From Vermamoeba vermiformis (lineage: Eukaryota): DNA of 64,000 bases. A model generated the notes under the pieces. The model did not search any database and was not told where the DNA came from. It saw only the letters and a list, made by a program, of their open reading frames with translations. Below are positions 52,101-64,000 of the stretch, one piece after another. The stretch spans positions 1 through 64,000 of the forward strand of contig JBEWZL010000126.1 in assembly GCA_045837725.1 (NCBI GenBank), read 5' to 3'. Position numbers and translations under genes: made by a program. Within the stretch, counting starts at the first letter, position 1, and the number at the start of each line of letters is the position of its first letter.

Positions 52101-54926
52101 TCCCGATTCACAAACTGTTCTAATAGCAGTTTCGTTCCAAATAAGCTGAAGACACTTGTCGTATCCCAAGAACAAAGAGCGCAGTATGCTGAAGTGTGTG
52201 CCAGCGGGGTTCAATAGCTTCAGGAAGTACTGAATCTTGTGGTCGTCGGGGCGACTCCAGCTACTGGAGTTTGGATCAATCATTGAAGGCGAGCGTATGC
52301 AGATTGTCGTGGCGAAGTGTTCAAATCCTTGATAATGGCCAAATGAATGCAGAAGCTCAATCAGTCCCATTGCTTTTAATGCTTTTAGGGTATTGGGCTT
52401 TTCTGCTTCTGTCCACAATTGTTGAGACTCGTCGCACAGCACCAAAGCTATCATAGAATAAGCACGAGGTTGCTGATACTGGCACGACCAAGTGATATCC
52501 AAGTCTAGTTTTTTCAGTTCTGGTACTAAGCCAAGGGGATCTGAGTGGTCAAAGCGAAATTTCGTCCAGTGTTCTTTACCCGCCTTCTTTAAGTCTTCCA
52601 TATCGATGCCCATTGATATTGCACGACAGTATTCTCGTGCTTGAAGTTTGTGGTCGTGCGCACAAGGCGGAGGTGCCCACACACCATCGTCATCAGTGCA
52701 CAGAAGCCAACTCTTCATGGAATTGATCAAAATACGCGAGTTTGCATGCTGAACAAGGTAAGAGTTGCTGGTCATGTTCACTTCGACCAACAGATCGGAG
52801 ATGAGAGCCAAAAACGGAGTGAAAGACTCGGTGCCATCGGGAATGTGCACGTCAAACGATGAGGGAACTCGTTCGAAGCTTTTCTCCTCCTCCGTCAGTT
52901 TGTCAACGATGCAGTCTTGAAAAGCAACGCCGTGACCAATTCTGCACTTGATTCCTCGAGCACAAATGCGGCGGATTGCCAATGCCATGATGAACATGTG
53001 TGCGTACATTGCCTTGGCAATTCGACCTTTCTCTTCTCGAATGACACCTTCGCCACAATGCAAGCGAATGCCAAGCTTGAATTTTGATGCCAAATCAAGC
53101 CATTCGTCTTGAATGAACGGGCAGTATGGAAATCCAAGCTCTTCGGAAACCAGATCCAAACCAACGACTGTATTCAGAAAACCGCGACTTCGGTGGTCTT
53201 TCAGCACGCGAAATAAGTACTTCAGCTTATGAAGTATGGGCGTGAACTCCGTATAGGCTTCAGGATTCAGCGAATGTGACATCGCAGTATTTGGTTCTTT
53301 GATTAACAAGTCCAAGGCTTGTTTGCTTGTAGCTCTCTTTAACTCTCCGTCGATTGGAAGCTTGACAAAAGTCCGAGAAATTCCTAACAGAAATCTGTAT
53401 TCCATCTTGTCGCTAATATCTGATTCATCGGAACCAGGCTTCCTTGCTCCGTTTGTCGCATCGGGGCCAGGTATCTTATCCCAAATTGCGTCATGCACCA
53501 AGTACTGGTAGATCCAAGGTGTAGTCAAGTCCCTCAAGCTCAACGAGAACTCGACATAGCTTGTTCTTGATTGCGCATAGCTCATCAACACATGCTTGAG
53601 CAGAAGAGTGAGTGTGTACGGATGTTGTTCGTAGATCGGGTCACGGAGCTTGAAGCGCATCGGATAGAACTCGGGTGTGAAGCGGCGTCTGAATCGATGA
53701 ACCAAATCAGAGTTCGATGGTGTTGAGCCGTCAACGTTGAGCATCGTGAAGCAGTTGCGAATCTGAGCCCGTGTTGCCTTTGCTTCTAGTTCTGTTCCAT
53801 GGCGTGCCTCCATGAGGTAACACAGATCCGTGTTGGTGATTCCCAATTGATAGTCGAATTGCTGTGCCTTCACGTTGAAGAACATGTACTCTTTGAGGTA
53901 AAGACCGCTGCCGCCATCTCGGTTCAGCGCCAGTCGCGCAATTACTTCGTGAACCACATTGTCTTGTCCAAGGTTCGTCTTAATATTCATCGATTCACGC
54001 AAGGCATCGATGTCGAACACTACGTCAGTCGTGAAGTTGAGAGCCGTTTGCCAGTCCCACTGCCCGTCCATTGATGTGCACGAGAGCTTCTTACACAATG
54101 ATGTAGACAAAGGTAGATTGAGCCATTCTTTGTCGCGGAAAGATCGAAGAATTTCCGCCACCAGGTCGTTTGAGAACTGGACCGGCTTTAAGTTCTCCCA
54201 GTTCAGCATCGTATAAACTTTCCAATATTGACCGTCCAAACCAAGATCCAGCCATTTTTGTTTTGCACTCTCTTTGGAGCCCTATTAATAAATAAGAACG
54301 GTATAACGATTTAACTTATTTTTTCCGGTACATACCACATCTATATCCTCATCTCCATCCCAGTAACATACGACGCGGGCTGAAAGGCCCCAATTGCTTA
54401 TTGTAAATGCTCTTTCCATTAGTTGGCTATGACGGACAGTGAATGTAAACGGATCCGAAGTCGGGTGAATAACGGCGTGATAAACATCGTCGCGAAGCTA
54501 AATTGTATTAGCTCAGTAAGCCTATGGTAGTTGCTCTTACCTCCATTACTGTGGTATCTTCGCCGTACTGTGTACAATAGCTTCCTTCAATTTCCGAGGT
54601 CTCCAATATAATCTCGAGGGTTGGAAACTCGCGAAAGCACAACGGACCGTACCACTCCAATGAATCCAATAGCATATCGTTTTTAGAAAACAAGTACTTT
54701 CGCATGATTTGATCGATCCAGAACTTGTGATCTCCCATTCCCATGAAGTGTGTGTGAAGATCGGCAGTAATGAGGTTCGAATCCAAATGCTCGAGCAATT
54801 CAGCGGTTTTTTTCTGCTCCTTTACCCAGTTATATCGGGCTGCATTGCTATTAGATACTGATCTTAGTAATTAAGAGAGCACTTACCTCGTGCCACCCTA
54901 TCATCAGGTGGCCCATCACGATCCAT
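49165..54926 (-). CDS. ~1,850-aa adenosine/AMP-deaminase-like + class-3-lipase-like + helical/TPR-like fusion protein (copy 1)
   Basis: Deaminase motifs DLHTH, VGLDL, LHCGE, RIGHG, EVNMTSN and CTDDDG. Lipase-like IAGVGYSGSAVA, WTYGGKQFG and RWISLHDTV. An intron at ~49755-49797 joins the 1501-aa ORF in frame to the last exon containing LNAACCLARIG. Confidence 0.85.
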
Positions 54927-61608: not shown

Positions 61609-64000
61609 AATGACGATAACTGAAGATTCAAGAAGGTGGCATTCATATTTATAGTTGACCAGGAAAATAAAACTCGCAATATTTTTACCTGATCAACCTA
61701 AAACAGTTCGGATACTAATAACGTTCTGCCATAATTGAATGACCTTTAAGAAGTTACAACGCGGAATTACGCTTACCGAATCTAAAATTGGGAGATACTA
61801 AATATAAAATAATTTCTAAAAATCATTTTCTTTCTCGTGATTAATGTAAATAGTGCAAGCATCCTCCTATAAATAATAATTGCTTGAGAATATTAGAGCG
61901 GAGTGAGCTATCTGAAAGATTTAACAATATTAGCGATTTCATTAAAATTTGGCTTTAAAAAGACTCATGAGCGTTATTAAGAGTTACTTTCCATTGTGGG
62001 AGTTAAAATGGAAGACAAAATGGTTTGGTGTTCCTTGTTGATCTGCAGAATTAAAATTGCAACACTCGATATAAAAACACCATTGTTTACTGCAGGACTG
62101 CACCGCAACGAACACAATGAAGTCAAGATTGGGCACTTCAATTTACATTATTCGTAATATAACGGCAGGTCCCGCCAAGTTTGGAATTTATTTATTTATT
62201 AATAACAAACAAGGTAACTTCTAATAATAGATCTTAAATTTAAACGGCATCTGCGATCGGATTCAACCAAGGCTATAGCAATATTTTTAATATTAATTAT
62301 AATTAAATCCAGCTCGACTCGATTAATTCCGGCGAGTGGCGCATCAACCAGTTGGTAAGTTACATATTTAAGGCAATCTAATACCAGTTTTTAATTAAGT
62401 CGATATTTCCATTGACTATTTTAAGGAAATACGACTTGAACCAATGTTATTCCGCTCTGAAATCGAAAATCGTGCCAAGACCCCAGGAATCCCTGCACGA
62501 CCCCGAATCAAGGTAAAAACAAGCAAATATATCGTTAAAAGTATAATTTGATTCAAGCGCTTGAATAATTGGATATTGAAGACGAATCGTAGAAAGTTTG
62601 ATTATTTTCTCGTTTTTGTTTGGATCGACACAAACGCTCATCGATTTATTTCAAAGACTCGTTTGCATCATCACGTTACCCTTTAATTGTTTTACGCTGC
62701 AATGGATCAAGAGCCTGATATTGTGGCACGAGGTAAGTAGTGTCTCTCTTATTTACGAAGAACGGCATCTAATGGCAATTTTAGCTCTTATGGAGAATGC
62801 AGACCGAGATGCATGGGTACAGGAGCAGAAAACAACTGCTGAATTGCTCGAGCACTTGGATTCGAAGCTCATTACCGCCGATCTCCACACGCACTTCATG
62901 GGAATGGGAGATCACTCGTTCTGGATCGATCAAATCATGCGAAAGTACTTGTTCTCTAACAACGATAGACCACTGGAGTCATTGGAGTGGTACGGTCCGT
63001 TGTGCTTTCGCGAGTTTCCAACCCTCGAGATTATATTAAAGACTCCGGAAAAAGAAGGAAGCTATATTGCACAGTACGGCGAAGATGCCACAGTAATGGA
63101 GGTAAGAGCAACTACCGTAGGCTTACTGAGCTAATACATGTTTAGCTTCGTGACGGCGTTTATCACGCAAGACTTCATCCGACTTCGGATCCATTTACGT
63201 TCACTGTTCTTCATAACCAAATGGCAAAGGCATTTACAATACGCAACTGGGGCCTTTCTTCTCGCGTCGTGTGTGACTGGGGTGGAAATCAGCATATAGA
63301 TGTGGTATGTATCGGGTAAAATAAATTTAATCGTTTACCATTCTTAATTGTTGATAATAGGGCTCCAAGGACGAGAGTGCAAAAAATAAATGGCTGGATC
63401 TTGATTTGCGAGATCAAGATTGGAACGTCTACACGATGCTGAACTGGAAGGAATTAAAGCCAATACGGTTCTCCGCGCAACTAGTGGGGAACATTCTTCG
63501 AGCGTTCCGTGACAAAGAATGGCTCAATCTACCTTTGTCTACATCGTTATGTAAAAAGCTCTCGCGCACGTCAATGGATGCACCGCAGTGGGAATGGCAA
63601 ACGGCCCTCAATTTCACGACTGACGTAGTGTTCGACATCGACGCCTTGCGTGAATCGATGAATATAAAGCCGAACCTTGGACAAGACAATGTGGTTCACG
63701 AAATAATTGCACGTCTGGCGTTGAACCGAAATGGTAACAGTGCCCGTTACCTCAAAGAGTACATGTTCTTCAACGCGGCAACACAGCAATTCGACTATCA
63801 ATTGGGAATCACCAACACGGATCTGTGTTATCTCATGGAAGCACGCAGTGGGACAGAACTAGAAGCAAAGGCAACATTGGCTCAGATTCGCAACTGCTTC
63901 ACGATGCTCAACGTTGACGGCTCAACACCATCAAACTCTGATTTGGTTCATCGATTCAGACGCCGCTTCACACCCGAGTTCTATCCGATGCGCTTCAAGC
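61530..64000. repeat. Right arm of the inverted duplication (runs off the window)
   Basis: Reverse-complement match to 53648-56110. Confidence 0.92.
62702..64000 (+). CDS. Adenosine-deaminase-like fusion protein, copy 2 (5' part only)
   Basis: Same exon structure and ADLHTHFMGMGDH motif as copy 1. The frame is open to the window end. Confidence 0.85.

Follow-up and report, generated by a model that had tools for sequence, protein, structure and literature searches.

Within the 64,000-nt window, the whole stretch of DNA analyzed here, a repeat search over positions 50000-64000 identified 12 collinear inverted pairs of 83-98% identity that tiled 53648-56107 against 61535-64000, the left and right arms of an inverted duplication. 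Global alignment of the two arms (2710 columns, 2.46 kb) gave a mean column identity of 87%, with a longest exact match of 68 nt, and the arms were separated by a spacer of 5427 nt. These values bore out an earlier note on this DNA, made from the sequence alone, which had described arms of at least 2.4 kb lying ~5.4 kb apart; the right arm is cut at 64000 by the window end, which sets the outer end of the repeat, so that 2.4 kb is a lower bound and "at least" is the correct wording. No other large inverted repeat was found in the window, the only further pair being 68 nt long and 78% identical (2246/3959). At the inner ends the homology stopped abruptly, at 56107 on the left and at 61535 on the right, and the DNA past these two points showed no relatedness.

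In the left arm, the left deaminase-lipase gene contributes its 5′ exons, and a patatin-like phospholipase gene its exon 1 and 9 nt of intron 1; the arm also includes a TATA-like motif and ~1.1 kb of intergenic DNA. According to the sequence-based gene model, the left deaminase-lipase gene (49165-54926, minus strand) encodes a protein with an adenosine deaminase (ADA)-like domain, a domain resembling class-3 lipases and a helical C-terminal part. It begins with a putative start exon (54926-54887), followed by an exon with the HxH motif (54839-54541), a third exon (54497-54336) and a large exon that starts at 54281 and stays open for 1515 codons, as far as 49734. The last exon was placed within 49773-49165 by matching the C-terminus of protein P0001 by eye. 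The right copy (62702-64000, plus strand) shows, as far as the window extends, the 5′ part of the gene, in exons at 62702-62732, 62803-63101, 63146-63304 and from 63361 to the window end. Between the arms lie the remaining exons of the patatin gene, an actin-like gene and an oxygenase remnant. The domain assignments made earlier (deaminase-like, lipase-like, patatin, actin-like and oxygenase) all held, the deaminase-like one by profile, fold and catalytic residues, the patatin, actin-like and oxygenase ones by Pfam, and the lipase-like one by a Pfam match close to the cut-off.

The actin-like gene (59511-60623, plus strand; Pfam actin E 8.3e-73) is intronless and divergent, its product being 98% identical to the best match, 58% to the next and ~40% to canonical actins. 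The 2OG-Fe(II) oxygenase remnant (60791-61529, minus strand; Pfam 2OG-FeII_Oxy E 4.8e-16) carried several defects. No Met precedes the DIOX_N match (profile positions 17-40) in its ORF, which a stop closes at a distance of 3 nt from the edge of the arm. Near 61050 the frame shifts by 1 nt within the HTDA/TMVTLLLQDD motif, and it changes again near 61440. By our estimate these defects were fewer than a synonymous divergence of ~0.3 predicts.

The patatin gene (56034-58495, plus strand) has a predicted exon 1 at 56034-56098 and putative later exons in ORFs at 57773-58495. Its model included six GT-AG introns of 42-50 nt as far as 57452, and from the ATG at 56034 the seven spliced exons formed a predicted frame of 379 codons with no stop, containing GGGxR (residue 104), SxSGG (150) and DGG (372). 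Shifting the end of exon 1 by one base in either direction produced 15-16 stops. Pfam Patatin was matched at profile positions 1-48 (27.6 bits, N part) and 145-190 (36.3 bits, C part). A TATAAATA motif at 55986-55993 (plus strand), which precedes the patatin ATG by 41 nt, is a putative TATA box.

In each arm, the innermost 190 nt corresponded to these elements of the patatin gene: the TATA-like motif, exon 1 and 9 nt of intron 1. In the right arm the TATAAATA copy lies at 61646-61653 (minus strand), the exon-1 copy at 61544-61608 (minus strand; 74 of the 76 compared bases identical to the left arm), and the copied donor GTAAGCGAG directly after it at 61543-61535 (minus strand). Since patatin sequence up to the start of its first intron forms the inner edge of both arms, the left arm appears parental and the right arm derived, as an inverted copy abutting the oxygenase remnant. 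The neighbor exon carried along with the duplicated segment indicates the direction of copying, which makes the locus a clean case. We also considered whether a 22-codon ORF located at the inner edge encodes the N-terminus of the oxygenase, and rejected this, as the gene model joins the ORF by splicing to the reading frame of patatin; its searches returned only leucine-rich-repeat matches in PDB, at E 0.15 or worse, and nothing in Pfam at E 10.

We interpret the locus, with a probability of about 0.7, as a genuine inverted segmental duplication of deaminase-lipase/patatin origin in a eukaryote with short introns. The ancestral unit would have been a head-to-head pair, with the deaminase-lipase gene on the minus strand and the patatin-like phospholipase gene on the plus strand, of which a segment was copied in reverse 5.4 kb away. 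The copied segment would have run from patatin intron 1 (9 nt of it) through exon 1, the TATA-like motif and the 1.1-kb intergenic region into the deaminase-lipase gene, taking in at least the 5′ part of the latter, and would have inserted at the 5′ end of the oxygenase gene, which now has no start codon and at least one frameshift. The 5′ end of the oxygenase gene was apparently lost to the inserted copy; given the few defects of the remnant, the death of this gene may be later than the duplication.

Palindromes of gene-bearing arms can also arise during assembly. In the 2013 draft of Adineta vaga, such palindromes, likewise made of two gene-bearing arms inverted on one contig, were absent from the chromosome-level assembly and were blamed on erroneous scaffolding of phased haplotypes (PMC8494291). 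A comparable misjoining of haplotypes, or a chimeric fold-back, is very unlikely at the present locus, even though no contig among those listed bridged an arm plus both of its flanks (a 5109-nt contig of data set X1 entered the right arm by only 30 nt) and short-read contigs broke at the exact repeat of 68 nt. Arms produced by folding back a single molecule would be nearly identical, whereas the observed arms had a dS of 0.28, 87% identity and many indels, and the unrelated DNA beyond the inner ends indicated that they are not collinear alleles. Haplotypes would be expected at half depth in the arms; instead, depth in X1, which possibly derives from the same sample as the window assembly, was 305-344 throughout (338.7, 339.8 and 343.8 for arm contigs, 304.8 for the spacer, 306.8 and 321.1 for the unique gene body). 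Contigs of X1 covered 30 of 30 bins, and an independent water metagenome (X4) yielded sequences matching parts of both the spacer and the right arm at ≥97% identity. In contrast to the A. vaga case, the arms were 13% different, met unlike inner junctions, shared a like depth and enclosed a 5.4-kb spacer with three genes. The divergence of the arms, their differing inner junctions and the equal depth of the contigs all argued against a fold-back artefact and for a genuine duplication.

Comparison of the two deaminase-lipase copies over 361 aligned codons revealed no stop in either copy and a dS of 0.282, a dN of 0.092 and an omega of 0.33. The coding indels were 3 and 6 nt long, with an additional in-frame indel of 9 nt in the putative first coding exon, and two introns occupied identical positions in both copies (95% and 85% intron identity). 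Omega was 0.28-0.52 in every part compared, with no sign of positive selection. The codon comparison showed that, across the compared part, both copies diverged under purifying selection with their frames open; the claim that open frames and intron positions were kept in both copies was therefore upheld by the 361 stop-free codons and the two co-located introns, and the dN/dS of 0.33 likewise fits two genes under purifying selection. The right copy is visible over only ~370 codons and may be truncated or broken beyond them. In a word-based protein search, only P0276 (53% identical, 1653 aa) matched among proteins of near length and only P0002 among shorter ones, so no near-identical protein showing the remainder of the right copy was found there.

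Divergence was unevenly distributed along the arms. Synonymous divergence between the copies dropped toward the window end, and this falling dS suggests gene conversion further into the deaminase-lipase gene. At the opposite, inner end, positions 55901-56107 were 90.5% identical to their right-arm counterpart and the final 82 nt 98% identical, above the other intergenic DNA of the arms, which had 37-64 matches per 100 alignment columns. An inner-edge identity of 90-98% also exceeded the neutral level implied by dS. Either function or gene conversion might account for this conservation near the promoter of the inner gene, which is seen even though the right arm faces no intact gene.

The earlier note had read the arms as shared bidirectional promoters flanking an invertible spacer, an arrangement that would co-regulate a set of deaminase-lipase and patatin effectors. 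We consider this reading highly improbable. The divergent, head-to-head orientation of each deaminase-lipase copy to an inner gene held on both sides, and the conserved inner edge speaks in its favor as well. On the right, however, the partner described as an oxygenase gene is a start-less and frameshifted remnant, and the deaminase-lipase copy faces the patatin exon-1 copy before it. The conserved edges could also stem from gene conversion, a process to which the falling dS at the opposite end points. Inversion of the spacer found no support, the arms being 87% identical with an exact run of at most 68 nt and none of the three spacer genes scanned (patatin, actin-like and oxygenase) being a recombinase; no joints were seen in the contigs, although contigs built at k=31 have no power to establish orientation where an exact repeat of 68 nt intervenes. 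Co-expression of the paired genes was likewise unsupported: RNA runs X21 and X23, which carry the same species label, each gave one partly fitting read on 17 kb at 97% likeness, counts that, given a possible strain difference, show neither silence nor expression. The expected linkage in relatives did not appear either, with a patatin, actin, oxygenase or lipase match at none of 26 related metagenome loci (contigs of 1-12 kb). No function as a switch or regulatory device is demonstrated for the repeat, and a genuine inverted duplication, as preferred here, is ordinary in kind and concerns one member of an uncharacterized deaminase-like family.

The identity of the N-terminal domain of this protein was less apparent from standard libraries. 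Pfam A_deaminase did not match the window pieces of the deaminase gene even at E 10, nor any of 26 homologues at E 1e-3, and single-sequence searches with the deaminase part of the window gene gave nothing informative in Pfam, PDB (phmmer), PADLOC or NCBIfam. Members of a 49-sequence family reached A_deaminase at E ≤ 0.01 in only six cases (best 2.3e-5). The window protein and the remaining 43 of 49 members thereby differ from the known ADA, ADAL/MAPDA, ADGF/ADA2 and AMPD enzymes (PF00962, PF19326) in missing the Pfam model; in contrast to that family, the window ADA-like domain also spans ~650 residues with large insertions and is N-terminal in a predicted protein of ~1900 residues that continues into the lipase-like domain and the helical part.

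The family profile resolved this relationship. Searched against PDB, the 49-member profile matched 15 sequences at E ≤ 1, all 15 of them adenosine/AMP deaminases (best 1.1e-7). The structure predicted for a 44%-identical homologue, rather than for the window's own spliced protein, adopted an ADA-type (beta/alpha)8 barrel fold. The candidate catalytic residues were present in the left gene as H408/E411 (HCGE), H450 (GHG) and D530/D531 (TDDDG; large-exon numbering), and DLHTH occurred in exon C of both copies. In the family alignment the columns of H408, E411, H450, D530 and D531 were conserved in 49, 48, 47, 47 and 27 of 49 members, respectively. From ADA biochemistry, we take the HxH, H..E, H and D-D residues to have the corresponding catalytic and metal-binding roles. 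We infer that the N-terminal domain, though divergent, belongs to the adenosine/AMP deaminase fold and retains a full catalytic set; its most likely reaction would be deamination of a nucleoside or nucleotide that contains adenine, by the zinc-dependent mechanism usual for such enzymes. For the middle domain, a serine lipase or esterase is probable, Lipase_3 having matched the gene at 21-22.9 bits (cut-off 22), with the serine of GYSGS as the candidate nucleophile.

An exhaustive family search returned 247 proteins at E ≤ 1e-3, with large multidomain architectures and with named members in choanoflagellates and bdelloid rotifers, the rotifer homologues being ~34% identical to the window protein. 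Among 26 scanned family proteins, seven carried Dynamin_N, Roc/Ras, ankyrin, OTU or Lipase_3. The 26 related metagenome loci were recovered with alignment A3, a scan with the window protein alone yielding no relative; ankyrin occurred on two of the metagenome ADA-like ORFs, and one truncated ADA-like ORF (L023) was followed by a NACHT protein. Scans with two narrow motif patterns from A3 recovered no locus from viral contigs and a single weak one from prokaryote genomes, a stretch of 52 residues at 45% in a Nitrospina MAG. The family is mainly eukaryotic and uncharacterized, and the literature search, within the terms and library covered, found no paper on it. A catalytically complete ADA-like domain that standard domain libraries mostly miss is a more useful lead than the duplication itself.

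According to PMC13276650, the deaminase effectors of bacteria either turn ATP into ITP or disturb nucleotide pools. If the enzymes of this family act on nucleotides in the manner of bacterial defense deaminases, they would amount to a eukaryotic counterpart. In one reading, the deaminase-lipase protein would be an immune-type effector that joins an ATP-to-ITP-type deaminase, compare Cad1 and RADAR, to a membrane-attacking lipase, and its two copies would form a diversifying paralogue pair. Recurrence of the ADA-like domain in large multidomain proteins, together with the ankyrin and NACHT associations, is consistent with such a role, which we nevertheless regard as unlikely. The argument from architecture works by association only, the omega values are uniformly low, and the two motif patterns detected next to nothing of the family in the prokaryote and virus collections scanned. 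The fold predicted for the homologue was as near to housekeeping ADA as to the defense deaminases Cad1/CAAD (CARF-ADA) and RADAR RdrB. A PADLOC scan of ten proteins (four window pieces, five homologues and one patatin exon) matched no deaminase model at E ≤ 0.1, and its sole match of any kind was to AbiEi at E 0.033.

A broader version of the immune reading, in which the head-to-head deaminase-lipase/patatin pair forms a two-enzyme immune module of eukaryotes, appears doubtful as a whole and rather improbable. In such a module, a nucleotide-deaminating domain of the ATP-to-ITP type would be coupled to membrane-attacking lipases. The reading would combine a Pfam-blind ADA-like family, fused in holozoans (choanoflagellates, bdelloid rotifers) and aquatic eukaryotes to Roc/dynamin GTPases, ankyrin and OTU and set in one case next to a NACHT protein, with an inverted duplicate that is a young paralogue kept by selection and a conserved promoter block that is bidirectional. 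The likeness of the deaminase-lipase and patatin combination to anti-phage effectors, noted earlier for this locus, remains an analogy. Separately, a protein atlas pointed to ADA and AMP deaminase clusters at a score of 0.90, a weak lead.

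A repeat scan of positions 50000–64000 returned 12 pairs in inverted orientation but no family of direct repeats. The pairs were collinear and tiled 53648–56107 (left arm) against 61535–64000 (right arm) at 83–98% identity, confirming the inverted duplication of the earlier note, and no second large inverted repeat was found in a whole-window scan. Global alignment of the arms gave a mean column identity of 87% across 2710 columns, with the longest exact match, 68 nt, at the inner edge. The homology broke off sharply at 56107 and 61535, with unrelated DNA past both points. With the outer limit set by the window end, the arms measured at least 2.46 kb around a 5427-nt spacer, in agreement with the at least 2.4 kb and ~5.4 kb estimated previously. 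The inverted segmental duplication is real and ordinary, and its polarity is readable from the carried-along exon of a neighboring gene.

It is very unlikely that the arms arose during assembly, by fold-back or by mis-scaffolding of haplotypes, the latter being described for the first Adineta vaga assembly (PMC8494291). A single-molecule fold-back is expected to give near-identical arms, and mis-scaffolded haplotypes should give allelic arms with collinear flanks. In contrast, the arms differed by 13% with a dS of 0.28, and their inner flanks were unrelated. In the short-read run X1, which may be the source sample, 30 of 30 bins were covered, and the arm contigs had depths of 338.7, 339.8 and 343.8, whereas the spacer contig (5109 nt) stood at 304.8 and the unique gene body at 306.8–321.1. 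Of the right arm, the spacer contig covered just the first 30 nt, the point at which k=31 assembly is expected to stop on a 68-nt exact repeat. From the independent water metagenome X4 came only short pieces, 58127–60457 and 62915–63367. One X4 contig lacked a base at 61529, just outside the right arm, and differed further at 61394, 61473 and 61477, indicating that close, slightly different relatives of the locus exist in nature.

The inner end of both arms carries a 22-codon ATG-led ORF. Its first reading as the oxygenase N-terminus was rejected, as the tests gave it no support and the ORF splices into the patatin frame. It is predicted to be exon 1 of the patatin gene (56034–56098, plus strand, 65 nt), followed on the same strand by exons 2 to 7 at 56147–56211, 56259–56405, 56456–56653, 56701–57038, 57081–57242 and 57289–57452. 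These seven exons and six GT-AG introns (42–50 nt) gave 379 codons with no stops, containing GGGxR, SxSGG and DGG, and both ends of the Pfam Patatin profile were matched in the 56034–57452 exons; a one-base shift of the first junction in either direction introduced 15–16 stops. The motif TATAAATA is found 41 nt upstream of this ATG. The repeat reaches 9 nt into patatin intron 1, and the exon 1 copy in the right arm, identical to the left arm at 74 of 76 compared bases, would be out of frame if spliced to the next acceptor.

Past this copy the DNA is unrelated, and an ORF there matched DIOX_N profile positions 17–40; no Met precedes the matching part, and a stop closes the ORF 3 nt away from the arm. 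The 2OG-Fe(II) oxygenase beside the right arm (60791–61529, minus strand) consists of pieces with no in-frame stops (Pfam E 4.8e-16), carries a frame change near 61440 and a 1-base frame change near 61050 inside HTDA/TMVTLLLQDD, a conserved motif that is contiguous in such enzymes, and looks like a young pseudogene. We infer that the left arm shows the parental arrangement and that the right arm is the copy, whose arrival would have removed or replaced the 5′ end of the oxygenase gene. Of the two head-to-head pairs described in the earlier note, patatin does face the left deaminase-lipase copy; the right copy faces the patatin exon 1 copy and then the start-less, frameshifted oxygenase.

The left deaminase-lipase gene (minus strand) comprises exons at 54926–54887 (putative start), 54839–54541 (encoding DLHTHFMGMG) and 54497–54336, a large exon from 54281 whose 1515 codons are left open by the standard code, and a last exon within 49773–49165, where the translation resembles by eye the C-terminus of the homologue P0001. 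The same set on the right occupies 62702–62732, 62803–63101, 63146–63304 and 63361 to the window end. Both copies kept the open frames attributed to them, with no stops and 58 amino-acid differences across 361 aligned codons (dS 0.282, dN 0.092, omega 0.33); their coding indels were 3 and 6 nt, the putative first exon differed by a 9-nt in-frame indel, and two introns were 95% and 85% identical. Given the absence of stops, the omega and the in-frame indels, purifying selection appears to act on both copies as genes. In successive 50-codon blocks of the large exon toward the window end, dS (small counts) fell from 0.41 through 0.36, 0.26 and 0.14 to 0, which suggests gene conversion deeper into the gene. 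Two intergenic patches, 55159–55221 and 55331–55413, showed 94% and 83% arm-to-arm identity with splice-like signals at their flanks and are candidate 5′ untranslated exons for this gene.

Between the arms, the mid-intergenic region kept only 37–64 matches per 100 alignment columns; the block by the inner gene (55901–56107) was 90.5% identical, its last 82 nt 98%, although there is no intact gene opposite the right arm. Such conservation, which bears on the shared-promoter proposal, could reflect function in both directions or gene conversion. Two RNA runs gave one partly fitting read each, too few to bear on co-expression. An invertible spacer found no support in any test here: arm identity is low for recombination (87%; longest exact run 68 nt), no recombinase occurred among the three spacer genes scanned, and no inversion joints were seen in the contigs, which cannot show spacer orientation. 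Linkage of the paired genes was found at none of 26 related loci, on short contigs.

Direct searches with the window protein returned a borderline Lipase_3 match and nothing else, with no deaminase domain match in Pfam (E 10), PDB (phmmer), PADLOC or NCBIfam. When 1.84 billion representatives were searched exhaustively, 247 relatives emerged at E ≤ 1e-3, the best being 52% identical across the C-terminal half and 44% across the N-terminal domain. A profile of 49 family members matched 15 PDB entries at E ≤ 1, all 15 adenosine or AMP deaminases (top match 9nte, E 1.1e-7), and 6 of the 49 members reached Pfam A_deaminase (E ≤ 0.01). The window protein retains H408/E411, H450 and D530/D531 (numbered on the large exon of the left gene), with HxH kept in both copies. 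These matches and residues uphold the original deaminase assignment, and we conclude that the N-terminal domain has the adenosine/AMP deaminase fold in a divergent but catalytically complete form.

This ADA-like family is mainly eukaryotic and uncharacterised, and is here joined to a lipase-like domain. Its named members come from bdelloid rotifers (Adineta ricciae, Rotaria sordida; UniRef label "Adenosine deaminase domain-containing protein") and choanoflagellates (Didymoeca costata, Salpingoeca kvevrii), and metagenomes contain relatives that are full-length, at 1653 and 1768 residues. Motif-based scans gave one weak locus among 185,579 prokaryotic genomes and no locus in viral contigs. Extra domains (Dynamin_N, Roc/Ras, ankyrin, OTU or Lipase_3) occurred in 7 of 26 relatives scanned, ankyrin repeats in two metagenome ORFs, and a seawater metagenome contig (L023:3-5648) carries a truncated ADA-like ORF and, downstream in the same orientation, an ORF of 1178 residues with a NACHT domain. 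By association, these architectures recall immune-type proteins. No test here supported the defence-system analogy; the immune-effector reading is a lead deserving an enzyme assay.

The window DNA is eukaryotic, with genes split by GT-AG introns of about 42–57 nt. Of the sampled window words, 54–97% were present in X1 and in two other runs from its sample, and 27% in a water metagenome of another study. Other ORFs matched a piggyBac-type transposase, a zinc alcohol dehydrogenase, a GH30 glycosidase and an LRR-Roc protein. The transposase ORF (2704–3936; DDE_Tnp_1_7, E 6.9e-8), within region 2246–4319, is flanked by 68-nt inverted repeats (2246–2313 and 3959–4026, 78% identical) and followed by a 26-nt tandem array (4055–4319). 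The 547-codon family 30 ORF at 11811–13454 (Glyco_hydr_30_2, E 1.9e-151) is intronless, whereas the rest of the window is intron-bearing, and may have been horizontally acquired. Direct repeats of ~138 nt (32022–32159 and 40101–40237, 87–91% identical, 8.08 kb apart) enclose the LRR-Roc gene (35648–36961), which has eight internal 69-nt repeat units. The actin-like spacer gene (59511–60623) is intronless and divergent, with ~40% identity to canonical actins. One protein matches it at 98%, and the next nearest, from a transcriptome and a metagenome, are 58% identical.
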